Shown: positions 9,642-35,990, counted from the stretch's first letter. The stretch: DNA of 64,000 nucleotides from Thermoproteota archaeon (GCA_030550585.1 JAUQPB010000001.1:224001-288000), one strand, 5' to 3'. Numbers and translations are program-made. Notes: generated by a model not told the origin, from the letters alone.

Positions 9642-9646
9642 AAACT

Positions 9647-11670: not shown

Positions 11671-11673
11671 GAA

Positions 11674-12372: not shown

Positions 12373-12376
12373 CTTA

Positions 12377-13399
12377 TCACATTTCCCCTTTCTCTACAAC
12401 CTCTACCCCAGTTGATTCAATACCTGTAGCAACTATTGTGGCACCCAAAGCCTCGGCAACTCTCTTCAATATGTTTGCATGTTCCTCATCTCTTGCAAGA
12501 GCTATAAACGCGCCTCCACCACCAGCACCAGATGTCTTTGCTCCTAGGGCTCCAGCACCCCTAAGGGTGTTTACTATTGTGTGATGCTCTAGGCTAACAA
12601 CACCTAGCGAATCTAAAAGCCCATGGTTCAAGTTCATAAGAATTCCAATTCTTTCAGCATCTCCTTGTAGAATACTACTGCGAGCCTCTTCAACGATACT
12701 GCCAATAGCATCTACAATCTTGCTTGCGCTTATAGAGCTCTTCAAAAGTTTCTTCACATTCGATACTAGAACAGCTGTTGTCGACTTTTTTGGCGTATAT
12801 CCAACAATAAGATTCATTTTTGTTGGCGTTGGCAGAGGCTCTGCCTTGGGGGTAGCAGGATCTATATATCTAATGCCACCAAAAGTTATGGTGTAGGTGT
12901 CCATCGGGCTTGCCACTCCCTGAACAATTTGCTCTGTTCTCCATGAAAGCTTTGCTATAAGGCTTTTCTCAATCTCTGTTGTTGAAAGATATGTTGATAG
13001 ACATAATGTGGTTGTGGCAACAGATACCGCTGCTGATGTTCCTAACCCTACGCCTGTTGGAACAGGACTCTTTAGGTACATTATAAAGCCTCTTCTTCTA
13101 CCTGGTTTAACCTCATCCTCGCACAATCCAATAGCTGTTGCAATATAGCTGACAAATCTTTTTGCAACATCGTTGTCTACCTCAGTTTTGCTAAAAAGAT
13201 TGTCTTCTCTGTTAAACTCTATTTTTCTTATGGGTAGCAACACATTGTTGAATTCTACAACAATTTTCTGCTCATGAACATCCATAGCCTCGACAAGAAT
13301 GTGTAATGGTAGTGTAAATGCTATTGCAGGCTTTCCATAGACTACAGCATGCTCGCCAAACAATGTTGCCTTCAGCGGCACTTTGATAAGCATTTTCAA
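12377..13399 (-). CDS. mvk: mevalonate kinase
   Basis: LFGEHAVVYG, PTGVGLGTSAA and KTSGAGGGG GHMP motifs. Confidence 0.93.
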   Translation of the reverse strand: MKMLIKVPLKATLFGEHAVVYGKPAIAFTLPLHILVEAMDVHEQKIVVEFNNVLLPIRKIEFNREDNLFSKTEVDNDVAKRFVSYIATAIGLCEDEVKPGRRRGFIMYLKSPVPTGVGLGTSAAVSVATTTLCLSTYLSTTEIEKSLIAKLSWRTEQIVQGVASPMDTYTITFGGIRYIDPATPKAEPLPTPTKMNLIVGYTPKKSTTAVLVSNVKKLLKSSISASKIVDAIGSIVEEARSSILQGDAERIGILMNLNHGLLDSLGVVSLEHHTIVNTLRGAGALGAKTSGAGGGGAFIALARDEEHANILKRVAEALGATIVATGIESTGVEVVEKGEM

Positions 13400-13442
13400 A
13401 TGTTTTGCACCAGTCGATTTGGGTTAAAGCCGGTTTTGATCA

Positions 13443-13497
13443 TGTCAGAGGAGGTTCATAACATCATCGCATCAGTGTGGGCAACAGATCATCATTG
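13443..13497 (-). ncRNA. C/D box sRNA overlapping the thrS stop codon
   Basis: Minus strand ATGATGA-tctgttgcccaca-CTGA-tgcg-ATGATGT-tatgaacctcct-CTGA: all four boxes with 12-13 nt guides. Confidence 0.85.
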
Positions 13498-15354: not shown

Positions 15355-15501
15355 GTATGTTGCACCACATTGTTTAGGTGGGTGTATGCTAGCTTAAGCA
15401 ACTCTTCTAGACTCAATATAAGGTTTTTTGGAGATTCTGTTTCGGGCTAGACTCTAACAATATATTAGCTTTTTTCGAATGTATAAAACTCAGAAATTTG
15501 G

Positions 15502-16467
15502 GTGAAAATAGTGGTAACAGAAGAGAAGAAGGTGAAGAGCCTAGAGGAGCTTGGCATATCATCGACCATACTGAAAAAGCTTCAGGAAATGGGGATAACC
15601 ACCGTAGAGGCCTTGGCAGCTGCTAACCCGCAAGAGCTTAGCCAAAACCTTGCCATACCCCTTCCAACAATACAGAAGCTGGTCTCCCAGGCTAGAGCAG
15701 CTCTTGGACTTGGATTCAAAACTGCTTTAGAGATAAAGAAAGAGAGAATGAGCCTACCGAAGATAACCACTGGAAGCAAGAATCTAGATAATCTACTCGG
15801 TGGGGGTGTGGAGGTGAAGACAATAACAGAGTTCTTCGGAGAGTTTGGAAGTGGCAAAACCCAGTTGTGCCACCAGCTAGCAGTGAATGTGCAGCTACCG
15901 CTTGAGAAAGGCGGCTTAGGTAAAAAGGCTATATATATAGATACTGAGGGGACGTTCAGATGGGAGAGAATAGAGGCTATGGCCAGAGGGCTTGGCCTTG
16001 ACCCGGATAAGACCATGGAGAACATACTCTATGTCAGAGCTGTTAACAGCGACCACCAAATGGCTGTTGTTGAAGAGCTGAAGGATTTGATACCAAAAGA
16101 GGACATTGGGCTTGTAGTTGTAGACTCCGTAACAGGTCACTTCAGAGCTGAGTATCCAGGCCGAGAAAACCTTGCTGTTAGACAGCAAAAACTCAATAGA
16201 CATCTGCATCAGTTAATGTCGTTGGCAGAGCTATTCGATGTTGCTGTTGTTATAACCAACCAGGTTATGGCAAGACCAGATGTATTCTATGGAGATCCAA
16301 CAACTGCTATAGGAGGCCATGTGCTATATCATGCGCCTGGAATCAGAGTCCAGCTGAAGAAGAGTAGGGGCAATAGAAGAATAGCTAGAATAGTTGATGC
16401 ACCCCACCTACCAGAGAGCGAAGCTGTTTTCGCAATAACTGAGGTTGGTGTGAGAGACCCAGAATAA
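15502..16467 (+). CDS. radA: DNA repair and recombination protein RadA
   Basis: FKTA polymerisation motif, [31 protein letters not shown] and DAPHLPE. Confidence 0.98.
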
Positions 16468-16518
16468 ATCGCTTTGTCCAAGACCCATATAAGATCATGT
16501 ATAGTGTGAGATTCAACA

Positions 16519-18796: not shown

Positions 18797-18874
18797 GGGC
18801 CCGTAGCCCAGCCAGGACAGGGCGCCGGCCTCCGGAGCCGGAGGTCCCGGGTTCAAATCCCGGCGGGCCCGCCA
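18797..18874 (+). tRNA. tRNA-Arg(CCG), intronless, CCA encoded
   Basis: Acceptor stem GGGCCCG/CGGGCCC, anticodon arm CCGGC-CT-CCG-GA-GCCGG, T-arm CCGGG-TTCAAAT-CCCGG, 3' GCCA. Confidence 0.96.
18830..18874 (+). repeat. attL (tRNA 3' half)
   Basis: ctccggagccggaggtcccgggttcaaatcccggcgggcccgcca. Confidence 0.92.
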
Positions 18875-18915: not shown

Positions 18916-18947
18916 ATGTTTCAGTTTCATGGTGCAGGCTGAAACAT
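18916..18947. promoter_or_regulatory. palindromic site TGTTTCAG-N14-CTGAAACA over the integrase start
   Basis: Same arms and spacing recur at 35896-35925. Confidence 0.7.
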
Positions 18948-20236
18948 CAGGCGTGATAGCTTTGAGTGATGGTAGTTCTGAATGGTGGAATAGGATAAAT
19001 GTCTCAAAGATTGATGAAGACTCACGCTACAAGATTCTCTCCTATTTAGTCGAGAAATATGGGAGGAAGAAGGTAATGGAGGAAGCAGGTATTAGCCGTG
19101 TGACGCTGTGGAGATTGCTAAACCGGGTATCCCCGGTAGACCCAGAGTACATAGTCCCACTCCTCAAGCTCCTCACGCAGACAGAGTTTGAGAGTTTAGT
19201 ATCGGCGAAGAACAGACTCAGATCCCTCGGCATAATGAGAGACGATGGAACTGTAGACTACAGTCTGGTCTTGGAAATACTATCCATAGCTAGGAGCGAT
19301 GAATATCTTAAGAACGCTGTACTGAGGTTTGTCGTCCAAGAGTTTAAGGAAGATATTAGGAAAATGCTCGGGATAAGCTTCACAGGTATAAAGCTTGAGT
19401 GGAGTGAAGACTTCGAAAACTTTCTTGTGGAACGTAAGAAGCGTAGAAAGGTGAGAGACCCAGAGACCGTAAAGTACTACAGAAACCTCTTCAAGAGATA
19501 CCTAGAAGGAAAAGAACTCTCCGAAGAACTAATAGACTACATTGTTAGACACCAGAACAAATGGCTTAGGAACGTGTTCAGACACTACGTACAGTACCTA
19601 TACCATAAGAGAAGAATTCCCCCAGAAACCTTCGGCTGGATAATGGAGGTAGTCCCCTCAAGAGGGTATAGACTAGACGTAAGACCCTACCAGATCTCCA
19701 TAGAAGATGTTAGGAAGACCCTAGAGTTCTTGAAGGAGAACCACAAGACATACTACACAGTATACAGAGCAATGCTTGAGTCTGGAGCAAGGTTCGAACA
19801 CGTACTGGAGATGATAAGGACGTGGAACCCTAGAGAAACTGTAGTTATAGAGTCCATAGACCTAGAGGTGGAGAGGTTAGTGTGCTTCGATAGGTTCTGC
19901 AGGTACTACCTAGGTCTCAGAGGTCACCAGAAACCGTGTGAATGGATATACATGTCTAGAGGTACTATAGAGCTCTTGAAAACACTAGCACCCAAAGATA
20001 TTGATAGGAATAGTGTTAGAAGGTATGCCAGGAGGTATAGCCTAACCCTGCCGAAGATGTTTAGGAAAGTCTCATGGAGGATAATGGTTCAGACTATGCC
20101 TAGGGAGGTAGCGAGGTTTATCCAGAGCAGGTTCGGAGAACTAAGGGTAAGTGAGGCGAGGTACGAAGACCTCCTATCAGAGGCAGATGAACACTACCCA
20201 AAATACCTAGAAAAATTGGGAGAAGCTCAATTTTAG
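18929..20236 (+). CDS. int: tyrosine integrase with N-terminal HTH
   Basis: GISRVTLWRLL HTH; catalytic ESGAR, KMFR, FIQSR and SEARY; adjacent to att. Confidence 0.92.
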   Translation: MVQAETSGVIALSDGSSEWWNRINVSKIDEDSRYKILSYLVEKYGRKKVMEEAGISRVTLWRLLNRVSPVDPEYIVPLLKLLTQTEFESLVSAKNRLRSLGIMRDDGTVDYSLVLEILSIARSDEYLKNAVLRFVVQEFKEDIRKMLGISFTGIKLEWSEDFENFLVERKKRRKVRDPETVKYYRNLFKRYLEGKELSEELIDYIVRHQNKWLRNVFRHYVQYLYHKRRIPPETFGWIMEVVPSRGYRLDVRPYQISIEDVRKTLEFLKENHKTYYTVYRAMLESGARFEHVLEMIRTWNPRETVVIESIDLEVERLVCFDRFCRYYLGLRGHQKPCEWIYMSRGTIELLKTLAPKDIDRNSVRRYARRYSLTLPKMFRKVSWRIMVQTMPREVARFIQSRFGELRVSEARYEDLLSEADEHYPKYLEKLGEAQF

Positions 20237-20470: not shown

Positions 20471-21115
20471 TCATAGGTCGCAGATAGACCCCTTCACAAC
20501 CACCAAAAGAAAACTCTTAATCTCTTCCAATCCATTGATGAGGTAAATACTAACACGAGACTTATCCTCCATTTGTAGAGCTAGTAGCGCTGGAAGAATA
20601 TACATGTCCAGAGAAGTAAATACACCATCCCCCTCAAGATATACCAACCCGGCAAGATTACCAGGAAACCACGGAGCAGACCACCGATACACCCCCAAAT
20701 CCACCCTAGTATCCAACTTTCTACCAAACGAGATAAGATCATCCACAGAATACTTCCATAACACACCACCAACCTCCCCCCTAAGATATCCGTACTCCAA
20801 CACGTCCTCAACCCTACCAACCTCCCTCACCCTCCTAACCACAACCTCGGGAATCTTCTGAACCATTATTCTCTTAGGAGAGAGATAATAACAAAAAACC
20901 GGATCGCAACTTGGAAACTGAGGAAGAACCCTAACCCCATCCAAAGAAAGGAATCTGGATGGGACGTACACCACCTCCCAACCATTAAAAACACGATAAA
21001 GAATTACATAGGTAGACAGAAAACCACCATGACCAAAGTACACATACGGAAACCACACCCCCCTGACCTCCCTAACCACCACACCCACCCACACCAACCC
21101 TATATACACCGACAA
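20471..21115 (-). CDS. hypothetical element protein
   Basis: 214-aa ORF, no recognised motif. Confidence 0.55.
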   Translation of the reverse strand: MSVYIGLVWVGVVVREVRGVWFPYVYFGHGGFLSTYVILYRVFNGWEVVYVPSRFLSLDGVRVLPQFPSCDPVFCYYLSPKRIMVQKIPEVVVRRVREVGRVEDVLEYGYLRGEVGGVLWKYSVDDLISFGRKLDTRVDLGVYRWSAPWFPGNLAGLVYLEGDGVFTSLDMYILPALLALQMEDKSRVSIYLINGLEEIKSFLLVVVKGSICDL

Positions 21116-21122
21116 CTACTGC

Positions 21123-21479
21123 CATGCCGTTATGAGATCCCCCGACATACTGTTATGAGACCCACATCACCCGCCACATCACCCGCCACGGGGCGGCTCA
21201 TGATTACATTTATTATTATGATCAAATAGTATATGTATAGCACACCGTTATGACACCCACAGTTTTCCCACCATCGATTCTTGATCAGGAAATAATTAAA
21301 ATAGTTGAAAACAGACAATACCATGCCGTTATGAGACCCCTAGATATATATACACAATAACAATATTTAGTGAATACTGACATGCCCTTATGAGACCTAC
21401 TGTCATCCGCTTACGAGACCCTACTGATGAACCATTGCCATGCCGTTATGAGACCTTTTGACATACAGTTATGAGACCC
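21123..21479. repeat. iteron-like direct repeats (consensus CATGCCGTTATGAGACCC, about 8 copies) with AT-rich spacer; putative ori
   Basis: Copies near 21123, 21146, 21241, 21322, 21381, 21404, 21439 and 21462, all in the same orientation. Confidence 0.8.
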
Positions 21480-23530: not shown

Positions 23531-24799
23531 ATGTCTACTTCCGTAAGACAGCGTAGTTCGTTTGAGGAGGTAGTTGAGTTTAGTGTTGAGCGTCCAACTG
23601 TCTACGTTAAGCGGGGGTCTGGAGCTAAGGTAGCCGTTAACCTGTTTGGGGCCGGGGTCAAGGTCCTACTATCCTCTAGTTCGGACCCAGGGCTACACAC
23701 CGACATCAGACCTAGCGCTGGTGTCGTACCGCTCACCGCCTTAGTGACCGTACATGCGGGACCTACGGCAGAACTCGGAGTCCGTAGTGTGAGGATCTCA
23801 GCGCTAGATAGAGAGAGGAGGGTAGTGCTAGCTTCGGCCAGTCTCCAAGTGGTCGTGGTTGATGACAAGCTGTTAGACGTTGTTAAGAAAGTCGGTGAGT
23901 ATAGGTTGCTGTACAGAGAGAAAGGGACTCAGTACACTCTACTAAAGGTACTTTGGGACTGGAGAAATACGGTATTCACCTTCGCAGAGATCAAAGCGAT
24001 ATACGAAATGTTGGTGGCGAGAAGTCTATCCAAGGGAACAGTACACGAAGTTCTAAAGAGAATGCTTAGAAAGGGGCTAGTAATTCGCAGACCAGAGGGA
24101 TATGCATTCAATCCAAAGATCACTATGCACGAGGCGTTGAGAGCCATAGACATCAAGAGATCGTTAAACGGGAAGCGAGGAGCGATGAGTAGTCAGCAGA
24201 GGGAAGCCACTAACACAGTTGATGTGGATAGCCCGAAGACCCCTCACGAGGTTAGAGAGCTCATGGAGAGAGCTTCACAACTCGCTAAACAAGACTACTG
24301 GAAGGCTGTCGACCTAATCGCACATACATTGGTAGGGGCTCGGGAAACTGGGATCTGGTTCCTCTGGGTAAACGACCTCTTCATATACCGTGAGGAGAAG
24401 ACAGGGTTCTTCCACTACTTCAAGTCCCGCAGACTCTCGGAATTCCTAAAGGAGTTGGGGTTTGTGGAGGGACTCATGTTCAATCACACAAAACACTCTG
24501 CTAAAGACCTCATCCACGACCTCTATTGGTCGTACCCAAATGCTAGACGACTACACTACCTACTCAAGCAACATGGATGGTTTGAGTACCCAAACGACAT
24601 TCTCCTAATAGAGTTCTACTACGACTCGGGAAAAATCGCGTACATAGCGGTAAGAGAACTCAACAACGACACCGTACTATGGGGTTACGGCAACTCAGAG
24701 CACTCCGAGGAAGTAGAGAGGTTCCCAGTAATACCCGGCGAACACGTAGACAGAGAGAATGAGGAAACATACTTCTACAGACCGGCGGGGATATTCTAA
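23531..24799 (+). CDS. hypothetical protein with beta-rich N-terminus and central wHTH
   Basis: TFAEIKAIY..LSKGTVHEVLKRMLRKGLVIRRPEGY. Confidence 0.7.
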   Translation: MSTSVRQRSSFEEVVEFSVERPTVYVKRGSGAKVAVNLFGAGVKVLLSSSSDPGLHTDIRPSAGVVPLTALVTVHAGPTAELGVRSVRISALDRERRVVLASASLQVVVVDDKLLDVVKKVGEYRLLYREKGTQYTLLKVLWDWRNTVFTFAEIKAIYEMLVARSLSKGTVHEVLKRMLRKGLVIRRPEGYAFNPKITMHEALRAIDIKRSLNGKRGAMSSQQREATNTVDVDSPKTPHEVRELMERASQLAKQDYWKAVDLIAHTLVGARETGIWFLWVNDLFIYREEKTGFFHYFKSRRLSEFLKELGFVEGLMFNHTKHSAKDLIHDLYWSYPNARRLHYLLKQHGWFEYPNDILLIEFYYDSGKIAYIAVRELNNDTVLWGYGNSEHSEEVERFPVIPGEHVDRENEETYFYRPAGIF

Positions 24800-24954
24800 C
24801 AAAGACTCAGGTCTCCCCACTTCTATATGGAGAGCGAGTAGTTAGAGAAAACCTCTAAAAACAGTTCACTTCCCGAATAGACCTGCGAACAATCTTTAGT
24901 ACTCAAGTTTTTTATATTCTCTTAGAGAATTCTGTAGTAGGTGCTATAGAGCTT

Positions 24955-25116
24955 ATGCCCGTTATGGCTCGCACCAGGATTGGTAGGTATTATAGGACGA
25001 CTATTCCCAGGGAGGTCCGCAAGCTACTGGAACTAAGGGAGAACGACGAGGTCGAGTGGGTCTTTGAGAACGGAGTAGTCTACGTTAGAAAAGCAGGGGG
25101 TGAACAACATGGTTAG
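24955..25116 (+). CDS. AbrB/MazE/SpoVT family DNA-binding protein (53 aa, not in ORF track)
   Basis: MPVMARTRIGRYYRTTIPREVRKLLELRENDEVEWVFENGVVYVRKAGGEQHG; overlaps next start. Confidence 0.85.
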   Translation: MPVMARTRIGRYYRTTIPREVRKLLELRENDEVEWVFENGVVYVRKAGGEQHG

Positions 25117-25312
25117 ATGTCCGTTCTGCGGATTTGAATCGAGCCTGGAGGATTTCAAGAAGCTAAGAGAACCCTGGAGATTCAGGTTCTACGAGGTTAA
25201 AATGCTGGAGTGTCCTAAGTGTAAAGGTGTGTTCAACTACTACGAGGGTTTTTCACCAAGAGGTAAGCGTTCCTCGTTCATGATTAAAATGAGACCGCGG
25301 GCTAGAGCATGA
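25109..25312 (+). CDS. Zn-ribbon protein
   Basis: CPFCG and CPKCK pairs; ATGA overlap with the downstream RM gene. Confidence 0.75.
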   Translation: MVRCPFCGFESSLEDFKKLREPWRFRFYEVKMLECPKCKGVFNYYEGFSPRGKRSSFMIKMRPRARA

Positions 25313-28300
25313 GTAGTAGAATTCCTGTGCCTCAAATAGATATAGATGATGTAGTGAACTGCTTTAAGCAGAGTGTTAGAACAGCTAGAAATGAGGAGGA
25401 GGTTAGAGCAAGGGTTTCAGTAAGGTGCATTGAGGAGAAGATACTGAAGCCCCTGGGTATAACCCAGTACGGTCACTACGAATACACCCTTGTCTCGGGT
25501 GCTAGGGTAGACGCGCTGTACGGTCACGTGATAGTTGAGTACAAGGCTCCCGGTAAGCTCTCATCAGCATCCGACATAGCTAAAGCTAAGGAGCAAGTAA
25601 TTAGATACATCACTAAGGAGGCACCCAGTAAAGCTGAGTGGGATAGGTACCTGGGAGTCATAATAAGCGATAGAATAGCCTTCGTGAGGTACTATAAGCC
25701 CCAGGATACATGGATACTCAGAGGACCCTACGAGATCACCAGGGAAAGCGTTGTTAAGCTCATAGAGGCAATCAGAGGACTAAGGAGAAAAGCTCTCAAA
25801 GTAGACCCCCTACTCACCGACTTCGGTCCTCAGTCAGTAATAGCTAGAAGAGCCGTGAACACTCTCTATAGGAAGTTGCTGAACAGTAAAAACCCTAGAG
25901 CCAGGATGCTCTTCGAGGACTGGATGAGGCTCTTCAAGCAAGCAACTGGTTACGACCCCGAGAAACTCAAAGAGCTTCGTCAACTAGCCTCGGAGTACGG
26001 CATAGTAGGTAGTGTTAATTGCGATGCTCTGATATTCGCTATTCAAACGTACTACGCCTTCATAATGAAGCTACTAGCTGCAGAAGTCGTTTACCTATAC
26101 GGTGGTGGCAGGTTCTACAAATCCTACATCGCTGAGCTAGACGACAAGTACACAAGCGGTGGAGTTGAAGCCCTAAGGGGTGCCCTAGCAGAGCTCGAGA
26201 GCGGAGGTATCTTCAAGACCTTCGGTTACGAGAACTTCCTTGAGGGAGACTACTTCTCCTGGTACCTCGGTGAGCTGGATAAGGAGCTAGCCGACGTACT
26301 AGCTGAGATCGTCAGGAGGCTAGAAGACTACGAGCCTGCAACACCACAGCTGGAACCAGAGTACGCTAGAGACCTGCTGAAGAGGCTTTACCAAAACATT
26401 GTTCCCAGAGACATAAGACACAAGCTGGGAGAGTACTACACACCAGACTGGCTGGCGGACTTCCTCCTAGACGAGGCGGGACTCACACTCGAAAACCTGG
26501 AGAAAATGGGAGCTGAAGACCCGCTAAAACCATTTCAGATAAGGGTTCTCGACCCAGCCTGCGGGTCGGGGACCTTCCTCGTGAGGTACATTGCGAGGCT
26601 TAGAGCTTACGCTAGAGAGCACTACCTTGAGGATGTTCTCGTAGACTACTTGCTAAGCAACGTCGTAGGATACGACTTAAACCCTATAGCCGTGCTAACA
26701 GCTAGAACCAACTACTTGCTCATGATAGCTGACTTACCCAAGAGAGGGACAATAGAAATACCTGTGTACTTAGCCGACTCCCTCATGGTTGAGAGGAAGA
26801 CAACGCTCACCGGAAACGTCTACGTGCTCAAAACTGTTGTCGGAGAGTTCCAAGTACCCGTGAGGATCGTGGATAGTGGACTCCTACCGAGGATCCTATC
26901 GGAGGTAACCAGTACGCTGAAGAACAGGTACACACCCGATGACTTCAAGAATAGGATTAAGTACGTCTTCAAGGACATATCGAACAGCGAGCTAGAGGTA
27001 TTAACAGGGTTCTACGCTACCCTGCTAAAGCTCGAGGTAGAGGGGAAGAACGATGTCTGGGTTTCCATAATAAGAAACGCCTTCGCACCAATGCTCAAAG
27101 GCAAGTTCGACTACGTGGTGGGCAACCCACCGTGGGTGAACTGGGAAAACCTACCAGAAGAGTACAGAAAGATTAGCAAACTACTATGGTCTCAGTATGG
27201 GTTAATGGAGGCAAGAGGTAGAGGTTTAGGGAAGGTTAAAAGAGACTTAGCAATGCTGTTCCTAGCTAGGTGCTTTGACCTATACCTGAAGTCCGGTGGA
27301 AAACACGCTTTTCTAATGCCGTTCACAGTGTTCAAAACCCAAGCTGGTGCGGGATTCAGAAGGTTCCTAGCGACCAAAACAAGAGTGCATGTTGTACACG
27401 ACATGGTGTTAACAAAACCGTTTGAGGGAGCAGTGAACAGAACTTCAGCCATAGTTGTCGAAAAGATCTGCGAGCTAAAGGACATCAGCAATACAAAGAA
27501 ATGCCCTGACACGGTTAAACTGGTGGAGGAGAACAAGAAGATAAGGCACGTGGTATGGGTTAGCGAAAAACCCGTTCCAACCGATACGCCACTAGAAGAG
27601 GTCCTGAAAACCGTTGAGAGGTACAGAGCAGTAATGACGCCGTTAATGGAGAGAGATCCTTCGAGTCCCTGGATGCAGGTAACGGAAAGAGTGCTACCGC
27701 ACGTCAGGAAGCTAGTTGGCGAATCACAATACGAAGCACATGAGGGTGTGAATACGGCGTTAAACCAGGTTTACTTTGTAGAAATCAAGGAGAGACTACC
27801 CGATGGAAAGCTAGTGATAACGAATCCGCCAGAAGCTGGTCAAAAGAAGAGAATTAAGCAAGTAGAAGCCGTAGTTGAGCCAGACTACGTTTACCCGCTG
27901 ATCAGGGGACGGGATATAAAGAGGTGGTACGTGGACTTCAGGGACAGATACATCATTGTACCTCACGACCCAAAGACTGGAAAACCTCTACAGGAGCTGG
28001 TAGTAAAGACAGAATATCCACATACATACCAGTACTTCTCGATTTTCAGCAAGGAGCTAATGAACAGATCTATTCACAAGTTATGGGGCAAAGGAAACCC
28101 GTTCTACGCGGTATACGATATAGGTTCATACACTTTCGCTCCATACAAGGTCGTCTGGAAAGAAGTGTCGTCAAGGATGGGAGCTGGAGGATTCCATGTA
28201 GCGGTCATAGGGACTCTTAGTGGTAAATACCTGGGGGAAAAAGTAGTAGTGCCGGATCACACGGTTGTATTGGTACCGTTGAACGACGAGAAGGAGGCAC

Positions 28301-28974
28301 ACTACCTTAGTGCCATATTGAACTCCAGCATAGTAGCATTTGTTGGAACCTACATGCCTGTTAAGGGCTTAGAGAACCTGGCTATTCCCAAGTTCAACCC
28401 GAATAATCCTGTTCATGGAGAGCTCTACCAGCTCTCCATGAGAGCTCACAAGCTTGCCATGTGCGTTTACGCCGAAGTTGATCCTGATTATTGCGGAGAG
28501 TTCAGGAACCCGAAGGAGGAACTTGCACAAGTTGAGGAGCAGATAGATAGATTAGTTGCAGAGCTCTATGGTATGCCCGAGGACGCGCTACAGGACATCA
28601 GGAGGCTGTTAGCTATCTTAAAGGCTGAGGAGGCTCCAGAGGGAGATGAAGTAGAGGAAGAAGCATTGGAACCATCCATAGAGTTTCTCAAGACTGATGT
28701 AGCTGCTGGTCAAAGAGACTACGTAGAGTTCAACGTTGTAACTGTGGAGGAGTGTGATAAGGCGAGGATTACTCTGCAAGGCCCATGGGGCGTCAAAGAT
28801 CTCAGCTTAGGTGAGGGTAGACATAAACTAGAAGTAGTCCTTCCCGAGGGTGTCTACGAGGTTAAGTACACGTTTATCTGCGGAGAGCACAGTTACGAGG
28901 GCTCATTCAAGGTTACATCCTCTAAGTCTCTACCAACAGGTCCTAAGAGGCCTAGCACGCTGAAGCTCGGGTAG
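25309..28974 (+). CDS. type IIG-like restriction-modification enzyme (nuclease, N6-MTase, TRD) with C-terminal Ig-like extension
   Basis: E..RVDALY..IVEYKAP nuclease motif; GEYYTP, VLDPACGSGTF (motif I), VGNPPW (motif IV); TaqI-C-like YKVVWKE..HYLSAILNS. Confidence 0.9.
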   Translation: MSSRIPVPQIDIDDVVNCFKQSVRTARNEEEVRARVSVRCIEEKILKPLGITQYGHYEYTLVSGARVDALYGHVIVEYKAPGKLSSASDIAKAKEQVIRYITKEAPSKAEWDRYLGVIISDRIAFVRYYKPQDTWILRGPYEITRESVVKLIEAIRGLRRKALKVDPLLTDFGPQSVIARRAVNTLYRKLLNSKNPRARMLFEDWMRLFKQATGYDPEKLKELRQLASEYGIVGSVNCDALIFAIQTYYAFIMKLLAAEVVYLYGGGRFYKSYIAELDDKYTSGGVEALRGALAELESGGIFKTFGYENFLEGDYFSWYLGELDKELADVLAEIVRRLEDYEPATPQLEPEYARDLLKRLYQNIVPRDIRHKLGEYYTPDWLADFLLDEAGLTLENLEKMGAEDPLKPFQIRVLDPACGSGTFLVRYIARLRAYAREHYLEDVLVDYLLSNVVGYDLNPIAVLTARTNYLLMIADLPKRGTIEIPVYLADSLMVERKTTLTGNVYVLKTVVGEFQVPVRIVDSGLLPRILSEVTSTLKNRYTPDDFKNRIKYVFKDISNSELEVLTGFYATLLKLEVEGKNDVWVSIIRNAFAPMLKGKFDYVVGNPPWVNWENLPEEYRKISKLLWSQYGLMEARGRGLGKVKRDLAMLFLARCFDLYLKSGGKHAFLMPFTVFKTQAGAGFRRFLATKTRVHVVHDMVLTKPFEGAVNRTSAIVVEKICELKDISNTKKCPDTVKLVEENKKIRHVVWVSEKPVPTDTPLEEVLKTVERYRAVMTPLMERDPSSPWMQVTERVLPHVRKLVGESQYEAHEGVNTALNQVYFVEIKERLPDGKLVITNPPEAGQKKRIKQVEAVVEPDYVYPLIRGRDIKRWYVDFRDRYIIVPHDPKTGKPLQELVVKTEYPHTYQYFSIFSKELMNRSIHKLWGKGNPFYAVYDIGSYTFAPYKVVWKEVSSRMGAGGFHVAVIGTLSGKYLGEKVVVPDHTVVLVPLNDEKEAHYLSAILNSSIVAFVGTYMPVKGLENLAIPKFNPNNPVHGELYQLSMRAHKLAMCVYAEVDPDYCGEFRNPKEELAQVEEQIDRLVAELYGMPEDALQDIRRLLAILKAEEAPEGDEVEEEALEPSIEFLKTDVAAGQRDYVEFNVVTVEECDKARITLQGPWGVKDLSLGEGRHKLEVVLPEGVYEVKYTFICGEHSYEGSFKVTSSKSLPTGPKRPSTLKLG

Positions 28975-28978
28975 CCTT

Positions 28979-30412
28979 ATGAGCGACTTGTTCGCGAAGA
29001 TTAGGAGGGTTTTCGCGGAATACGCGGTCGACAAGAGCCTGCTTCAGGTAGCTGAAGTATCTAAGTTGCCCGGCTTCGTAGCAGAATACTTGATGACTGA
29101 GTTCTCCCAGATGTACCCAAGCGACTGGCAGGAGAGGCTGAGGGAGTTCATACGCCAGCACTACTTCGAGGCTAGCGAGAAGGAGTACGTAAAGCACCTA
29201 CTCGTCGAGAGGAGGAGGGTCTCACTAATCGATGAACTAGTGGTATGGGTAGACCTAGAGTCAGGTGAGCACAAGGGCATACTCCAGTCTATAGGGGAGC
29301 GTGACGTTAGGGTTCCAGCTGAGATAGCTAGGAGCTACCCAATGACCATGATCACGGGTATGTGGGGGCTGGTAGAGCTGGAGTACTCACCTGAGACTGC
29401 TAAGAGAGATTTAAACGGTAACTTGCTCGAGAACCCTGTAGTTGTTACGGATTTTAAACCTTTTCAAGCACCTGTCAGAGACCCTAAGTTACTTAGAGAC
29501 GCTAGGAGTTTCTTCACCTTTGATGAGTGGTTAGACGTGTTGATAAACACTATTGGTTACAACCATAATGTCTACCGAGATACGAGGAGGAAGCTGGTGC
29601 TGTTGTCCAGGCTCCTACCAATAGTCGAGGAGAACCTCCACCTAGCTGAGTTCGGTCCTAAGGCTACGGGTAAGACCTACGTTTTCAGGAACGTGAGTAG
29701 GTACTCCAGGATTATAGTCGGGGGCACGATATCTCCAGCAGCACTATTCTACAACCTTAGGACGGGTATGCCTGGTGAGCTTGCTGTGAGAGACTGTGTG
29801 GTGTTCGACGAGATATCTAAGGTCAGGTTTCCGAACCCGGACGAAGTCGTCGCTAAACTGAAGGACTTCATGGAGAGTAGTCAGTATGAGAGGGGGAAGC
29901 AGAGAGTAACCTCCGGTGCTTCAATAGTCATGCTAGGCAACGTCGAAGTCGAGGAGAGGGAGGGGACCTACATACCGGTAGAGGACCTAACTTACCTACT
30001 GCCCAAGCCCATGAGGGACTCAGCGTTGATCGACAGAATTAGTGGTGTTATACCTGGGTGGGAGCTGCCGAAGATAGGGCGGGCAAGGTACCATCTATCA
30101 CAGGGATACGGTATCGCGTTAGACTACTTCTCCGAGGTGCTACATGAGCTAAGGAAGGAGAGCCTCTTAGGTGAGGTAGGCAAGCACGTAGAGCTCTTCG
30201 GCAACGTGACGATTAGGGACGAGAGGGCCGTGAAGAAGATTGTAAGCGCCTTCACGAAGCTCCTCTTCCCAGACCTAGAGTTCGATAAGAGAGAGCTACA
30301 AGTAGTAGTCCAATACGCAGTAGAGCTGAGGCAGAGAGTTAGAGACTGGCTACACAAGCTATCACCGGGGGAGTTCCCTAGGGAAGCACTCTCCTTTAAG
30401 CTACGTGGATAA
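28979..30412 (+). CDS. brxL: BrxL-family MCM-like AAA+ ATPase lacking the Lon protease domain
   Basis: LPGFVAEYL, RSFFTFDEWLDVLINTIG, LSRLLPIVEEN, GPKATGKT, VVFDEI, LKDFMES, DSALIDRI and IRDERAV; ends at 477 aa. Confidence 0.88.
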   Translation: MSDLFAKIRRVFAEYAVDKSLLQVAEVSKLPGFVAEYLMTEFSQMYPSDWQERLREFIRQHYFEASEKEYVKHLLVERRRVSLIDELVVWVDLESGEHKGILQSIGERDVRVPAEIARSYPMTMITGMWGLVELEYSPETAKRDLNGNLLENPVVVTDFKPFQAPVRDPKLLRDARSFFTFDEWLDVLINTIGYNHNVYRDTRRKLVLLSRLLPIVEENLHLAEFGPKATGKTYVFRNVSRYSRIIVGGTISPAALFYNLRTGMPGELAVRDCVVFDEISKVRFPNPDEVVAKLKDFMESSQYERGKQRVTSGASIVMLGNVEVEEREGTYIPVEDLTYLLPKPMRDSALIDRISGVIPGWELPKIGRARYHLSQGYGIALDYFSEVLHELRKESLLGEVGKHVELFGNVTIRDERAVKKIVSAFTKLLFPDLEFDKRELQVVVQYAVELRQRVRDWLHKLSPGEFPREALSFKLRG

Positions 30413-30606
30413 CCCTATCCCGCAGTCTTGATCGGTGGTGCGGATGAGAGTGAGAACGTTAAGAAGCTTTAAGATATCACGACTTAGAAAATAGATAAAG
30501 GGGTCGCTCCTCAACGATCCCCATCCCCTCCGTAGTTTACCCACTACACCATATTTTACTGAGTAAAGCCTATAAGCCTGCTAAGAGGGCGTAGCTTGGT
30601 GAAGCT

Positions 30607-31008
30607 ATGCCGATAGTCATGCGCCCACTAGATAGGATCGCAGAGAAGTGGAGGAGAAGGTCCTTGGCTGCCGCCGGGGACTACGCCGAGGGTGTTGCAG
30701 CATCTAGGAGACCGTGGCGGGAGCAGATACTGGCGTCAGCCGATAAGTGGGTGAGGGGAGTAGTAGAGGCCGTAGCTGTGAACTCGTACGCAAGGGGTGT
30801 GGCCGCTATCCCCAGTGAGCTCTGGAGGTCTAGAGCCCTAACCACCGGCGTCACCAGGTACGCTGAGGGGGTAGACAGGTCGGTAAGAGTTTACGAGGCA
30901 TTCAGGGCCCTCTCCGAGCTGATGCTACCCCCGCGTGCTCCGCGTGGAGACCCAAGGAACCTGGAGAGAGTAGTAGTGGTCGTCAAGGCGCTGAAGCGGG
31001 TGAAGTAG
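30607..31008 (+). CDS. basic alpha-helical protein with internal repeats, possibly viral nucleocapsid-like
   Basis: KW..R..A..DYAEGV and LW..RA..G..RYAEGV repeats; LPPRAPRGDPRN tail. Confidence 0.6.
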   Translation: MPIVMRPLDRIAEKWRRRSLAAAGDYAEGVAASRRPWREQILASADKWVRGVVEAVAVNSYARGVAAIPSELWRSRALTTGVTRYAEGVDRSVRVYEAFRALSELMLPPRAPRGDPRNLERVVVVVKALKRVK

Positions 31009-31345: not shown

Positions 31346-34300
31346 ATGAGGAGAAATTCGGTTTTAGTCTTAGTTCTGCTGACCTTAGCCTTAGGCCTAA
31401 TGGTTTCCTCCGGATCAGCTCAGCTTAGGCGATCAACGCAACTGAGTCTCACGCCAGAAAACTTCACAGCTACTTCAGGCGGTAGCCTCACGTTTACAGC
31501 CACCCTGCTTTCAGATGGTAAACCCTTAGCTGGAAAAACCATTATCTTCTCGGCTACTCTCGGAACAGTTGATCCGCCTATGGGTGTGACAGATGCCAAC
31601 GGCAAAGTTTCGTTTGTCTACACGGCTCCGCAAACACCAGTTAGGATCTATGTGAAGATCACAGCCACCTTTGCCGGTGATTTGCTATACGAAGGCAGTA
31701 GTGCGGTCGCCTCAGGAGTCGTTGAGCCTGTGCCTTCGCCAATTCTTCCGTCGATATCCCTTGTAGGAGCCTCATTCACCATTCCTGAGACGCTAAAGGA
31801 TGATGTATCCTTGTATAGGAACTCCATTCCAAGCGATATCATGAAGACGCTGCCAACTGGTTTGCCATCAGAGGCCTTCCTGCTGGCAACTAATGAAAGC
31901 CTCTACTTGGTTTTTGCTGAGCAAAGTGATAAGGGCTTAGCCAAAGTGGAGGGTTGGCTTTTGCCGACGCACATTCAGCTTGCAGGTTTAAACATAGCTG
32001 TTGTTATTGCTAAGCAGGTCACCTTTGTGAAAGAAGGTTCGCCAACAGTTCTTAGTGATATCTTAGCCAATCCAGAAGCCTACAAGTTCAAACTTGTTAA
32101 GGTCGATGCCTATAGAAGGCAGATTTCGGTGCTCTATGATCCAGATGAGCCGCCGTACATCGAGTTTCCACTAACAATTGGATACCTCTCTGAGAGGCCC
32201 ATTGAGCCATTGGTGATTGTCCGTAAGGCTTTGGAGAGAGCTAAAGAGATAACCTTCAGAATTGATGAGGGGGTTATAAGAGACCTCCTGGAGCTTAGAG
32301 AACATCAAATACTCTGGGTCTTCAACTTCGAATATGAATATTGGTATGACTCTAAAGCTGTAACTAACGGGATAGTAATTCCACTTAACCACTCAATATT
32401 CACATTACTTGAGCAGTCCATGCCAGTCTTAGGAGGGCTCCTAAAAGCTAGGGGCCCAATAATTCTCTACGATGTTAAGACAGACCTACTTTATGAAGGT
32501 GTGCAGTCTGTAGTGGAGTTGATGAAGGACAGTAAAAGGTATCTAGGTAAAGTCGTTAAGTTGACTGCAAATTGCTATGGCGGTTACATTAGCGTTCAGG
32601 AGGTTATAGAGCATAATACTCCATGCGGTGAGGACTATGTTTACGTCCCAGATGTTGGATGCGTGAACCTCGCGACTGATGTGAGGTTCGAGGGCTTCGT
32701 TGCCTGGAATAATGTGAGTGTGCCCCCGAAGCGTGATGAACTCCTACTCGCGGTCGGCGTCTCAAGCTTCCATCAGGATGAGCAATTCGTTAAGGCCTCT
32801 GGAATCTTCGAACTGGTAGGCAAAGTGGTCTCAACTAAAGAGGTGAGCGATTCTCTACCCGAAGGCATTGCCCTCATAATTTATAGTGCTAGAAAGGTTG
32901 GTGAGATAGACTTTGAGAAGTTAGCTGCCCAAGTTAAGGACGAGGTTAAAAGGCAGGTAGGAGAGCTTCTCTGGAACCTCCAAGACATTTACCCGTATCA
33001 GAGGCCACCTGAAATACCATTCAAGGTTCCAAGGAAGGTCTTCTGGCCGAAGGCCCCAATCTCCGTTACCACGCCCAAGGAGCTCCCCGAAATAGTTATT
33101 GAGAGGAACTTCACGGTTATAATTGATGTGGCTGATGCGCCCATCAACCTAAACATAAGCAACTCCATCATCTCAAACATATCCATAAGGCTAAGGGAGA
33201 TTGTCAGGAACGTCACAATATACTTCGAGAAGCTCATTGAGAAGCCTCCAGAGGTGCCTAGCCCGCCGGGATTAGTTTACGCCTATCATAAGATCGATGT
33301 AAATATCCCTGAAGCCTCCATCGAGAAGGCAGATATAACGTTCTGGGTTATGAAGGAGTGGCTGGCAATCCATGGAGCCACCAAAGATGATGTAGTTATG
33401 CTCAGATACCATGGCGGAGAATGGTTAAGACTCCCAACAAAGGCTATAGGTGAAAACGTAACACACTTCGAGTTCACGGCCGAGACTCCCAGCTTCTCGA
33501 TATTCGCAATAGCGATAACAGCACCTGTTAGAGTTATGGAGACCGGTGTTGAGGGCTACGTCTTTGACAACGCTACCGGAAAACCGATTAAGGGCGTTAG
33601 AATAATAGCGTTGTCAAAGGTTATTACGTCAGTGCGTACTGAGGCTACAACGGACGATATGGGTCACTACTCGCTTTCCCTGACACCCGGGAGCTACGTT
33701 TTAGTTGTTTTAGCTAACGGTTATGCTGATGTATCGGCGGAGGTTTCGCTGGCGCTTGGAGAGGTTAAGCGGGTGGACTTTAAGCTTGAAAAGGCTCTGG
33801 CGGAATTCTCTGAGGATTGGTACGGCGTGAAGTTCGAGATCGCCATCTTAGGCAACCTCACATGGAAGATTGGAGACAATACATCGATTAAAGCCTCGGT
33901 GACAGTAGGTGATATGGGCGGAAACCAGAAAATTGAGTTTAGGCAGCTCACTCTAGAATTAGCGGAAGCAAATGTGAAAGTTTCTGTTCCAATAAACCTC
34001 GCTACATCAATCGGTGGGACTGTCTTCAGCAAACCCATCAGCATCGGGGTGCTAGATGGATTCGGCCTCCACGCTCCCGGAGAGACCAAAGGATACTCCC
34101 TCCAAGTTATCTTGGAGGGTTCTGTCATCGATAAATTTGGTATCGAATGGCCAGGATCAACGTTTAAAACTGTTAGCGTTAGCATCTACGCACCTGAGTC
34201 TCCGGTCTCGGTCGAGTTCACGGCCCCTTCAAAGGTTAAGATAGGCGACGAGTTTGATGTAAAGTTTAGGTTCAGGAATGAGGGGAAGCATCCTATATCA

Positions 34301-35197
34301 GACTTGAGGGTCTCGCTTTCATTGCCCTTCGGCACCTCTGCCATCGGGCCAATCGAAACAACGGTAAAAGTTGTTAATCCGAAGGAGGCTGCGGAGGCGG
34401 TGTTTAGGCTCAGAGCTGAAAATGCCACAACTAGCTTAATAACAGTAACGTATTCTTACAGGACCCTCTGGGGGTATGTTGTGTTAGAGCCCTTGAAGAC
34501 ATTGGGGTCGATAACTATAACTAAGATCCCAGTGAGCCTAACGATCTCTGCTGAGCCTAGGGAGGTTACTGTTGGTGAAGAGGTTGTGGTTAAAGGGTCA
34601 ATAAGCCCGGCCATGAGCAAGACTATAGAACTGGTCATTAAGAGGCCTGATGGAACAACAGATACGCAGACAACTACGTCTACACCCGATGGAAGCTTCG
34701 GCTTTAGGATTAAGCTCGATAAGGAGGGTGAATGGAGCTTTACAGCGAGGTTTGCGGAAGATTTAACCCATGAGGAAGCAGTGAGCCAGTCTGTAAACAT
34801 CGTCGCATTACCCGTCAAGACAGTACTTACGATTCAGGCGCCGAGCATGGTTAGCGTTGGTGAGGAGTTCGTGGTAAGTGGTAAGTTGACTAGGCTTGAC
34901 ACAGGTGCTGGACTAGCCGGTAAGAAGGTCGAGCTCTACATCAACGGCTCAAAGACCTCTGAGACGACTTCGAATGCTACTGGTGACTACAGCTTCAAAA
35001 TAAGGATAGAAAGTATAGGTAGGTACGCATTGAGGGTGTACTTCTCGGGCGATGGCTTCCTACCAAGCGAGGTAGTAACAACAGTCGTAGTAGAAGCTCC
35101 TAAAGCATCAGCAATAACCTGGAGTGTAGTAGTGATCGTGTTAGGAGTTCTGGGCTTGGGCATAGGCTTATACATGTATAGGAGGAGACGTTTGTGA
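31346..35197 (+). CDS. large cell-surface protein: signal peptide, Ig/invasin-like repeats, PGF-pre-PGF domain, carboxypeptidase-regulatory-like domain, C-terminal TM anchor
   Basis: Signal peptide; GKPLAGKTI..TDANGKVSFVYTAP; AETPSFSIFAI; TGKPIKG..TTDDMGHY; TM followed by RRRRL. Confidence 0.85.
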   Translation: MRRNSVLVLVLLTLALGLMVSSGSAQLRRSTQLSLTPENFTATSGGSLTFTATLLSDGKPLAGKTIIFSATLGTVDPPMGVTDANGKVSFVYTAPQTPVRIYVKITATFAGDLLYEGSSAVASGVVEPVPSPILPSISLVGASFTIPETLKDDVSLYRNSIPSDIMKTLPTGLPSEAFLLATNESLYLVFAEQSDKGLAKVEGWLLPTHIQLAGLNIAVVIAKQVTFVKEGSPTVLSDILANPEAYKFKLVKVDAYRRQISVLYDPDEPPYIEFPLTIGYLSERPIEPLVIVRKALERAKEITFRIDEGVIRDLLELREHQILWVFNFEYEYWYDSKAVTNGIVIPLNHSIFTLLEQSMPVLGGLLKARGPIILYDVKTDLLYEGVQSVVELMKDSKRYLGKVVKLTANCYGGYISVQEVIEHNTPCGEDYVYVPDVGCVNLATDVRFEGFVAWNNVSVPPKRDELLLAVGVSSFHQDEQFVKASGIFELVGKVVSTKEVSDSLPEGIALIIYSARKVGEIDFEKLAAQVKDEVKRQVGELLWNLQDIYPYQRPPEIPFKVPRKVFWPKAPISVTTPKELPEIVIERNFTVIIDVADAPINLNISNSIISNISIRLREIVRNVTIYFEKLIEKPPEVPSPPGLVYAYHKIDVNIPEASIEKADITFWVMKEWLAIHGATKDDVVMLRYHGGEWLRLPTKAIGENVTHFEFTAETPSFSIFAIAITAPVRVMETGVEGYVFDNATGKPIKGVRIIALSKVITSVRTEATTDDMGHYSLSLTPGSYVLVVLANGYADVSAEVSLALGEVKRVDFKLEKALAEFSEDWYGVKFEIAILGNLTWKIGDNTSIKASVTVGDMGGNQKIEFRQLTLELAEANVKVSVPINLATSIGGTVFSKPISIGVLDGFGLHAPGETKGYSLQVILEGSVIDKFGIEWPGSTFKTVSVSIYAPESPVSVEFTAPSKVKIGDEFDVKFRFRNEGKHPISDLRVSLSLPFGTSAIGPIETTVKVVNPKEAAEAVFRLRAENATTSLITVTYSYRTLWGYVVLEPLKTLGSITITKIPVSLTISAEPREVTVGEEVVVKGSISPAMSKTIELVIKRPDGTTDTQTTTSTPDGSFGFRIKLDKEGEWSFTARFAEDLTHEEAVSQSVNIVALPVKTVLTIQAPSMVSVGEEFVVSGKLTRLDTGAGLAGKKVELYINGSKTSETTSNATGDYSFKIRIESIGRYALRVYFSGDGFLPSEVVTTVVVEAPKASAITWSVVVIVLGVLGLGIGLYMYRRRRL

Positions 35198-35895
35198 TGG
35201 TGAAGGGACCATACCTTCCACTGCTAGTTTTCCTAGGCGCCCTTCTATACGTTCTAGTATGATCTAAGGGGTGGAGGACCTGACTAGATTTCTAATACAT
35301 AAACGTAAGACAGCTTGAAATAGTCTGTGAAACACTTCATGACCACGACTTAATATGGTCTGCGGCTATAGTTAACTCAAAATTATATTGTACTATAGTT
35401 TTCCGGCCTCTTCTCCTCTCCGGAAACGCAGGCTCTAGGCATCCTTAGTTCTTTCTGGTAGAGTCGTAGTTCTCAAGCTCTGCTGGGTTTCTCATTAGCA
35501 TTGGAGGACGTGGTCTCAAGTCTTTAAGAGATGTAGCATCTGAGTCCAGTTTGCCTATAAGTGCTGGGAGGTGTTTACACTAAGAGTCTCTAATGCTTGC
35601 TTTGTCAAAAGTGCTTCGGGAACTTAAGCTTTAACAACGCTTTTCAGTAGTTGTGTAGAGTTTTCTTCTTACCCCATGTCTTGAAGGAAGAGATTCTTAG
35701 CCATGGCGATTATTTTACACATTTCATTGCTTAAGACTTACTCTATGGGTACATACACCTGGATTGCTACGCTTCACTATATGCATAACGACTTTAAGTA
35801 GCTGACTTGAAGCTCCATGCTGGTATTCACCAGTCAGCCTTAACGTTTCAGTTTTCAAAGAAGAATATCGTTATTCACCTTCAGCTATGCATTGA

Positions 35896-35925
35896 TGTTT
35901 CAGTTTTACTTAGCTTACTGAAACA
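35896..35925. promoter_or_regulatory. palindromic site TGTTTCAG-N14-CTGAAACA just inside attR
   Basis: Matches 18917-18946; extra half-site near 35845. Confidence 0.7.
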
Positions 35926-35945
35926 GATCTACGGGCATCCCAGGA

Positions 35946-35990
35946 CTCCGGAGCCGGTGGACCCGGGTTCAAATCCCGGCGGGCCCGCCA
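35946..35990 (+). repeat. attR (tRNA-Arg 3' half, 2 mismatches to attL)
   Basis: ctccggagccggtggacccgggttcaaatcccggcgggcccgcca. Confidence 0.92.

Follow-up and report, generated by a model that had tools for sequence, protein, structure and literature searches.

Type IIG and IIL restriction enzymes (PDLC03630; structures of BpuSI, 3S1S, DrdV, 7LO5, and MmeI, 5HR4) unite in a single chain an N-terminal PD-(D/E)XK nuclease, a helical domain, a gamma-class N6-adenine methyltransferase and a region for target recognition. For enzymes of this kind such as MmeI and DrdV, efficient cutting requires the cooperation of several molecules or sites, and to our knowledge the known type IIG enzymes require neither ATP nor a partner. 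In McrBC, an AAA+ ring NTPase works with a PD-(D/E)XK nuclease partner and cleavage is long-range and NTP-dependent. In the bacteriophage exclusion (BREX) systems the ATPase is BrxL, an MCM-like AAA+ protein described in PMC10164562 as forming ATP-dependent rings around double-stranded DNA, restriction being lost only in the ATPase-site mutants. PMC10164562, PMC12839542 and PMC12707154 state that BrxL is required for restriction and not for methylation in E. coli and Acinetobacter, and propose that its N-terminal three-helix domain binds DNA or proteins; the first two state that BrxL is restricted to BREX types 1 and 4. The role of BrxL is openly named as a gap in BREX biology in PMC12707154. 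Here, a locus is described in a stretch of 64,000 nucleotides from a Thermoproteota archaeon of hot springs (GCA_030550585.1, JAUQPB010000001.1:224001-288000; the whole stretch is called the window), in which the gene of a 1221-aa type IIG enzyme is directly followed by that of a 477-aa BrxL. The locus probably encodes a defence module of the restriction-modification type with two components, on a mobile element that has integrated at a tRNA gene.

The short BrxL and the IIG family are each known, and their coupling looks undescribed: neither the coupling, nor the docking extension of the IIG enzyme reported below, nor a BrxL without PglZ and BrxC was found in the parts of the literature searched, and the gene-neighbourhood supplement of PMC12839542, which was outside the search, might list such loci.

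The IIG-brxL gene pair and its recurrence

The 1221-aa protein matched the PADLOC model REase_MTase_IIG (PDLC03630) with 1228 bits, its residues 16-1105 covering positions 12-1099 of the 1100 in the profile, as well as the Pfam families Eco57I, N6_Mtase and MmeI_Mtase. Nuclease, methyltransferase and its own target-recognition region are joined in a single polypeptide, which is the arrangement that defines type IIG. The nuclease residues D68, E77 and K79 (motif D...ExK) were invariant in 12 of 12 BrxL-linked IIG homologues and the methyltransferase motifs DPACGSGTF (motif I) and NPPW in 13 of 13 sequences; the target-recognition region was the more variable part of the enzyme, with conservation falling to 0.43-0.68. 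An AlphaFold model of residues 1-360 reached a pLDDT of 74.8, with low confidence around 57-72. By VIA structure alignment, its best match was the N-terminus of DrdV (residues 2-282; Z 8.9, root-mean-square deviation (rmsd) 13.1, 237 residues aligned), and the nuclease domain of BpuSI was also matched (residues 6-167; Z 8.2, rmsd 4.0, 127 aligned). A Z of 8-9 is the level typical for a best match in VIA, and the call of a nuclease fold rests also on which enzymes were matched, and where. With Foldseek, the N-terminal model had no PDB match at E ≤0.001, the best being DrdV at E 0.033. The helical domain that follows the nuclease was matched by LlaBIII 714-848 (Z 6.7), PglX 1-374 (Z 5.8) and MmeI 156-428 (Z 5.6), values that lie in the range which the tool calls common.

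The 477-aa protein covered the whole of the TIGR02688 profile (positions 1-449 of 449; 500.6 bits, cut-off 329.3), and both BrxL_N (PF20442, 90 bits) and BrxL_ATPase (PF13337, 379 bits) were found in it. Its Walker A residues G226, P227, T230, G231 and K232 and Walker B residues D277 and E278 were invariant in 12 of 12 homologues. Against the 679-aa Acinetobacter BrxL of known structure (8EMC, 229 bits) it aligned to residues 15-463 only and therefore has no Lon-like C-terminal domain; the long-form model TIGR02653 (675 positions) gave 288 bits against a cut-off of 628, and the C-terminal Lon-like/HKD domain of type 1 was not present. The original prediction of a protease-less BrxL is correct as to the absence of this domain, but the form is not new, being already known as TIGR02688 and from type 4 BREX.

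A survey was made of 401 genomes sampled from the Thermoproteota and of hot-spring metagenomes. TIGR02688 was matched in 36 of the 401 genomes, above cut-off in 25, and all full-length frames were of about 440-507 aa. At 19 places, spread over 17 genomes and 9 GTDB families, brxL directly follows an IIG gene. Copies truncated by the end of a contig (G058, G206:C102, G372 and G387) and decayed copies are included in this count; nine more BrxL fragments lie at contig ends and allow no judgement. The junction between the two genes was -11 to +4 nt in 10 of the 12 intact pairs, and the remaining two were artefacts of taking the longest open reading frame (ORF). By scanning the metagenomes with an alignment of 12 BrxL sequences, 80 loci with 53-95% identity were detected, and in 71 of the 73 informative ones (at least 500 nt upstream) an IIG homologue ended beside brxL. 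Of the other two, one (L073) kept an IIG remnant only, residues 1-106, at 2.8 kb from brxL, and one (L070) had no IIG gene and a truncated brxL. Some of these contigs duplicate one another or the surveyed genomes, and 46 of the 71 C-terminal sequences were left after removal at ≥90% identity. Pairwise identities among the IIG proteins and among their BrxL partners correlated with r = 0.90 (66 non-independent pairs from 12 loci); this co-divergence and the invariant Walker motifs fit a working pair. A scan of viral contigs with the same 12-sequence alignment gave 136 pattern matches, none of which encodes a relative.

The original prediction had allowed that the pairing might be unique to this locus, as a BREX deletion remnant or by chance. 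The counts from 19 places in 17 genomes and from 71 of 73 contigs contradict this, since a pairing that recurs across genomes and metagenomes excludes chance, and the reading as chance neighbours was rejected on the recurrence, the junctions and the co-divergence. The survey that had been suggested, of BrxL homologues without PglZ for adjacency to IIG genes, found the adjacency to be recurrent and no canonical PglZ beside any BrxL in the 401 genomes.

In the window, the pair forms the downstream half of four co-directional frames (Table 1). The frames of the AbrB-type and zinc-ribbon proteins overlap, the zinc-ribbon gene overlaps the IIG gene by 4 nt, and 4 nt separate the IIG gene from brxL. 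A four-gene operon with overlapping or 4-nt junctions behind a TTTTTATA box was thus rightly predicted, as the ORF coordinates and direct reading show, and of the hybrid unit proposed on that basis the IIG-brxL pair with its tight junctions recurs, whereas the four-gene unit is not conserved. A zinc-ribbon homologue was immediately upstream of the IIG gene in 23 of the 40 metagenome loci that could be judged, and also at L003, L037, L040 and L041; an AbrB homologue was upstream in 3 of the 40 and, weakly, in L040 and L041. The conserved core is consequently of two genes, with the zinc-ribbon gene as a frequent and the AbrB gene as a rare accessory. The 53-aa AbrB-type protein (AbrB/MazE PF04014, 39.2 bits against a cut-off of 24.7; TIGR01439, 31 bits) is likely a transcriptional controller. 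The zinc-ribbon cysteines read CPFC...CPKC, and all Pfam zinc-ribbon matches were sub-threshold.

The same genome contains a second pair on another contig (L003), in which the genes of a 1219-aa IIG enzyme and of a 474-aa BrxL overlap by 8 nt and a zinc-ribbon gene lies upstream. Identity to the window proteins was 65% for IIG and 57% for BrxL, and the two BrxL proteins fall in different subclades of the tree, which points to separate acquisitions and not to a recent duplication. Directly downstream of this second pair (G000:C6:142000-161999, 1-16500) are the genes of a 291-aa protein without a family match and of a 730-aa protein with a weak prokaryotic Argonaute (pAgo)/PIWI match (31 bits), and on the opposite strand those of a 993-aa DrmA/BrxH-like DEAD helicase and a 746-aa PLD-domain protein, a candidate nuclease. 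Judged by this gene content, the second IIG-BrxL module is placed in a defence island. This setting, together with the integrated element around the window copy, speaks in favour of a defence module.

The C-terminal extension and its predicted docking on BrxL

Relatives of the IIG enzyme were also found without a BrxL. Two of them, on plasmids of Phaeobacter and Bacillus thuringiensis, are of 1051 aa with 28-31% identity, have an intact D...EFK motif and no brxL nearby. An archaeal genome (G003) encodes a 1070-aa relative with 46% identity and no BrxL was found in that genome; its nuclease motif is degenerate, V and E replacing E77 and K79. The phylum also has IIG genes that are more distant (33-41% identity; about 1030-1215 aa), and these had no neighbouring brxL. 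The stand-alone proteins from G003, Phaeobacter and B. thuringiensis stop near window residue 1090-1100, and the PADLOC profile ends at 1105. The BrxL-linked enzymes run about 120 residues further, and this extension was found only in the BrxL-linked clade, which differs from described type IIG and IIL enzymes in these extra residues and in having, nearly always, a downstream gene for an AAA+ ATPase.

A model of residues 1057-1221 based on 56 sequences (pLDDT 82) consists of two helices, a low-confidence acidic linker, a beta-sandwich and a low-confidence tail. The beta-sandwich was modelled at pLDDT >90 and by Foldseek resembles FnIII/Ig-like domains (best E 2.4e-4). P1212 and R1214 of the tail were at least 90% conserved in the 56 sequences.

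A complex was predicted from IIG residues 700-1221 (522 residues, 13-row alignment) and the whole BrxL (12-row alignment). The model scored an ipSAE of 0.71 (0.71, 0.72 and 0.67 in the individual runs), compared to 0.00 for the best of three controls; in the benchmark for this score, 58 of the 80 solved complexes attained the mark and so did 2 of the 110 mismatched pairs, a rough guide here as own alignments were used. The runs had at least 72% of contacts in common, with a partner pLDDT of at least 85. Of the 522 IIG residues supplied, only 1118-1220 took part in the confident predicted interface, and the BrxL side was predicted at residues 1-15, 37-45, 57, 131, 160-171, 197-198 and 364-383. 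In the model, the conserved IIG tail (P1212, R1214) contacts the conserved N-terminal F-x-x-Y-A-V-D-K stretch of BrxL. Sequence searches of the PDB found BrxL solved only by itself, no close IIG relative and no like complex, which makes it unlikely that the score reflects the memory of the predictor. The prediction supports direct docking of the IIG extension on the N-terminal domain of BrxL.

A proposed mode of action and its alternatives

The original interpretation as a minimal RM/BREX hybrid is supported, the role of motor, loader or activator that it gave to BrxL remaining an inference. The action of the module is probably as follows. The IIG enzyme would mark host DNA by N6-adenine methylation at an asymmetric site and would cut unmarked DNA. 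Its C-terminal module would dock on the N-terminal three-helix domain of BrxL and the adjacent ATPase surface, and this flexible module would tether the enzyme to the N-terminal face of a DNA-loaded ring, if the short BrxL assembles into rings as its BREX homologue does. One such ring could tether several IIG molecules, up to six copies, and if IIG and IIL enzymes need several molecules, tethering of this kind would meet that need. Driven by ATP, the ring would move or clamp and so bring the IIG molecules together at or between unmethylated sites, which would license cleavage, block the replication of an invader such as a virus, or both. Expression would be controlled by the AbrB-type protein and perhaps also by the zinc-ribbon protein.

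A system of this kind would correspond to ATP-dependent single-chain (type ISP) or McrBC-type restriction in a split form, with an AAA+ protein to drive it, while belonging to neither. In the type ISP enzymes LlaGI and LlaBIII, nuclease, ATP motor, methyltransferase and target recognition likewise act together on asymmetric sites, and the helical coupler of LlaBIII aligns with IIG residues 163-360 (Z 6.7); the motor candidate in the window is, however, a separate MCM-like AAA+ ring protein and not a fused SF2 helicase, so the likeness would be one of function and not of family membership. McrBC was among the weak fold matches of the IIG nuclease domain (Z 4.8), but it is modification-dependent, has no methylase and uses GTP. 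With BREX types 1 and 4 the locus shares a true BrxL, as the TIGR02688 and 8EMC matches show, in a short form like that of type 4 according to PMC12839542, and in both cases the methylase linked to BrxL is an adenine methylase for asymmetric sites that belongs to the Eco57I superfamily. In the abstract of PMC9122589, BREX is reported without a classical nuclease fused to its methylase; at this locus, by contrast, a nuclease domain is conserved in the methylase partner, which is not PglX.

The absence of further BREX genes bears on the origin of the pair. Type 1 BREX has the gene order pglX ... brxL, in which loss of pglZ would give adjacency, and the locus might thus be such an operon minus brxA, brxB, brxC and pglZ; weak matches of PglX models on the methyltransferase region would agree with this. 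The NCBIfam BREX PglX models, however, gave 17-50 bits against cut-offs of 400-900 and the PADLOC PglX model 57 bits, whereas the type IIG model gave 1228 bits, and judged by these profiles the 1221-aa protein is not PglX. It has an N-terminal nuclease domain, and the pair is conserved across nine families. PglZ (PF08665) gave only partial matches in the 401 genomes (≤35 bits, ORFs of about 230-550 aa), none of them near brxL. A BREX remnant is already contradicted by the PglX scores, the nuclease domain, the PglZ survey and the recurrence; it was rejected and is hardly credible. In the host genome itself (1.76 Mb, 7 contigs, 99.92% complete) no match to PglZ (PF08665), BrxA (PF08849), BrxB (PF08747) or BrxC_BrxD (PF10923) was obtained in a whole-genome profile search, so that the absence of pglZ, brxC/pglY, brxA and brxB first noticed for the att-bounded element extends to the genome. 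The BrxA profile gave no match in any control genome either, which makes its negative a weak one, and PF10923 matched its control only below cut-off and in one genome, so that the BrxC/PglY negative is of uncertain sensitivity. The PAPS reductase (BrxP) and DUF4007 of type 4 BREX had no Pfam matches among the operon and element genes, the whole genome not being searched for PAPS reductase. That the two genes are independent and merely travel together in islands, the IIG enzyme being autonomous and BrxL acting alone or with something else, is very unlikely. Defence genes do cluster in general, and short BrxL in this phylum also follows a DUF1156/HmaB methylase and a 1087-aa protein, or a family of about 285 aa. 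The fixed order, the overlapping junctions, the adjacency in 71 of 73 loci, the co-divergence at r = 0.90, the restriction of the extension to the BrxL-linked clade and a complex score of 0.71 against 0.00 for controls all argue for a functional link.

What that link does is a separate matter. It could be that the IIG enzyme serves mainly as site sensor and methylase, like PglX, and that the recruited BrxL is the effector which clamps invader DNA and blocks its replication, nuclease cleavage being secondary or dispensable. The predicted docking fits such a recruitment equally well, but the PD-ExK triad is invariant in all 12 BrxL-linked enzymes and degenerate in one archaeal relative without BrxL, which argues that cleavage matters in the paired system, and we regard this BREX-like mode as rather unlikely. 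AAA+ rings commonly remodel protein-DNA complexes, and BrxL might accordingly be a remodeller or safety device that strips, recycles or restrains the IIG enzyme on DNA, either limiting self-cleavage or providing turnover for a single-turnover enzyme, instead of driving restriction. The predicted contact is one between proteins through a flexible tether, and the bacterial IIG relatives appear to function without BrxL, both of which would suit such a role; loci with a broken IIG gene (G011, G224) nevertheless keep an intact BrxL, for which a pure safety factor would have no use, a point that is weak either way. We consider a remodelling role unlikely.

Several observations weigh against the two-component module with BrxL as driver of restriction. 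The bacterial members of the IIG family appear, from their gene surroundings, to work alone, which implies that the nuclease needs no motor in principle; the conserved BrxL partner argues that the BrxL-linked clade departs from this rule. The survey covers one phylum and hot-spring metagenomes, and related genomes in it are not independent. Among decayed copies, one gene can persist where the other is broken: in G011 and G224 the IIG gene is split and BrxL is intact, and BrxL is disrupted in G208, where inserted genes of about 5.4 kb interrupt brxL (L148, G208:C1:662000-681999, 9513-15425), with residues 1-65 and 373-477 remaining. In G208 the adjacent IIG gene has a frameshift close to the C-terminus, and the two genes of that module have thus decayed together. 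The short BrxL has no counterpart of the C-terminal domain through which, in the solved structure, the two rings are joined. The complex score is the model's own confidence and was obtained from shallow alignments (13 and 12 rows), and within the IIG enzyme conservation is lowest in the C-terminal extension (0.36-0.41 identity to the window sequence), which is unusual for a fixed interface, although the tail motif is conserved.

If the two-component module is real, a conserved thermophilic two-gene system couples BrxL to a single well-understood partner and reduces a problem of six proteins to a binary one that is suited to biochemistry and cryo-electron microscopy, with a specific and mutable predicted docking site between IIG 1101-1221 and the BrxL N-terminal domain. 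Should restriction prove to depend on ATP and BrxL, the pair would represent a new class of restriction enzyme, and defence databases that call it RM type IIG plus orphan BrxL would be missing a system.

Other contexts of short BrxL and the integrated element

Short BrxL was found in further gene contexts. In L046 (3072-10752) and L047 (9273-17027) a DUF1156/HmaB-type methylase (989 and 1002 aa) is followed by a protein without a match (1087 and 1100 aa) and then by short BrxL; from this gene order, the loci may represent a BREX-related or Hma-like system with BrxL as ATPase. They resemble the Hma and DUF1156-DUF499 BREX-related systems in that short BrxL follows such a methylase, and BrxL thus joins other methylase-based modules as well; they differ from the IIG-brxL pair in the methylase family and in being a three-gene module. 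In seven other loci (L007, L054-L058 and L060, at about 8400-10800 in each) BrxL is preceded by a member of a family of 240-293 aa (about 285 aa), with 24-48% identity among members and no Pfam or PADLOC match. Several of these loci share flanking PEPCK-like and QueT genes, and the context consequently looks chromosomal and not island-like. In L051 the position before brxL is occupied by an unrelated 293-aa protein. In the BrxL tree, the forms linked to DUF1156 and to the 240-293-aa family make up one clade with a support of 100, and the IIG-linked forms span a core clade (support 98) and deeper branches.

We noticed that the proteins upstream of brxL (window 28936-28971; L007, L046, L047 and L054-L060) all end in a short basic-then-hydrophobic tail, such as GPKR..TL..G in IIG enzymes, R-N-R-I-E-R-L-L in the 285-aa family and RR.WDRLL in the 1087-aa proteins. 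This shared tail may be a common docking peptide for BrxL. An hhalign comparison of the C-terminal 150 residues of the IIG enzyme with the upstream proteins of the other two contexts gave probabilities of ≤0.2% and no detectable similarity. It is tentatively suggested, as a possibility on the doubtful side, that short BrxL is a partner-agnostic DNA-loaded AAA+ ring, recruited when the tail of the upstream protein binds its N-terminal three-helix domain, with the IIG enzyme, the DUF1156-methylase system, the family of about 285 aa and perhaps, in BREX, PglZ as partners. The IIG-BrxL pair would then be the minimal form of the arrangement and a new class of ATP-dependent restriction enzyme, and the role of BrxL in BREX would be pointed to as that of an effector-tethering clamp or motor.

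On two bacterial plasmids, short BrxL was seen among longer runs of genes. In Meiothermus taiwanensis (L063, NZ_CP021131.1, 70740-96032) a BrxL bearing the short-form name and annotated with 542 aa is preceded by DUF1156, Swt1-HEPN, ATP-binding, vWA, tubulin-like and hypothetical genes; PglZ is not annotated there, and the context is again a non-canonical one. The order on the Thermomicrobium roseum plasmid, PAPS reductase, DUF4007, a 1400-aa protein, PglZ, short BrxL and cysteine desulfurase, is that of type 4 BREX, the canonical setting of the short form.

Table 1. Coordinates of the features described, counted from the first nucleotide of the window
Feature	Position	Strand	Basis and remarks
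tRNA-Arg (CCG)	18797-18874	+	ARAGORN; last 48 nt (18827-18874) are attL
Element integrase	18929-20236	+	PF16795 archaeal phage integrase, 95 bits; phrog_5127 integrase
TTTTTATA, TATA-box-like element	24909-24916	+	Read from sequence; 38 nt ahead of the operon's first ATG; putative promoter
AbrB/SpoVT-type small DNA-binding protein, 53 aa	24955-25116	+	PF04014 and TIGR01439
Four-cysteine zinc-ribbon protein	25100-25312	+	70 aa from GTG; 67 aa from ATG at 25110
IIG gene, 1221 aa	25309-28974	+	
IIG residues 1-160, PD-(D/E)XK nuclease domain	25309-25788	+	D68/E77/K79; structural matches DrdV and BpuSI
IIG residues 161-349, helical domain before the methyltransferase	25789-26355	+	VIA structure alignment
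IIG residues 350-720, N6-adenine methyltransferase (DPACGSGTF, NPPW)	26356-27468	+	Pfam
IIG residues 721-1100, target-recognition region	27469-28608	+	PDLC03630 cover to residue 1105; weak TaqI_C match at 863-1011
IIG residues 1101-1221, acidic linker, FnIII/Ig-like beta-sandwich (1123-1205) and basic tail (GPKR...)	28609-28971	+	
Short BrxL, 477 aa, N-terminal DNA-binding/partner domain and MCM-like AAA+ ATPase	28979-30412	+	TIGR02688
attR	35943-35990	+	48-nt copy of the tRNA-Arg 3' end, 94% identical (direct repeat)

The operon of the window is located in a 17.1-kb integrated element bounded by att sites at a tRNA-Arg gene, and the G+C content is raised over approximately 18-36 kb. A PHROGs search of the element genes matched the integrase only, from which the element cannot be assigned to the virus or the plasmid class. 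Among the matches listed, 20 of 22 sequencing runs, from 9 studies, hold part of the window, and all except one RNA run are labelled as hot-springs metagenomes. In that metatranscriptomic run, also among the matches listed, contigs of relatives 90-99% alike cover 30 of 30 bins of 24700-30700; DNA carry-over is possible and no contig among those listed bridges the IIG/brxL junction, so this is not taken as evidence of transcription.

A 31-nt repeat with 74% identity occurs just inside attL (18916-18946) and just before attR (35895-35925), and its ends are self-complementary (ATGTTTCAG...CTGAAACA); these repeats may be arm sites of the integrase. Between two divergent unassigned ORFs, at 21114-21479, are four copies of a direct repeat of about 50 nt (62-100% identity; spacing 199, 59 and 58 nt), which are iteron-like and may mark a site for replication or regulation of the element. 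A 1283-aa protein with Big_1/Big_3 and CarboxypepD_reg domains, encoded by the last of the element's large genes (31346-35197), looks like surface or adhesin-like cargo.

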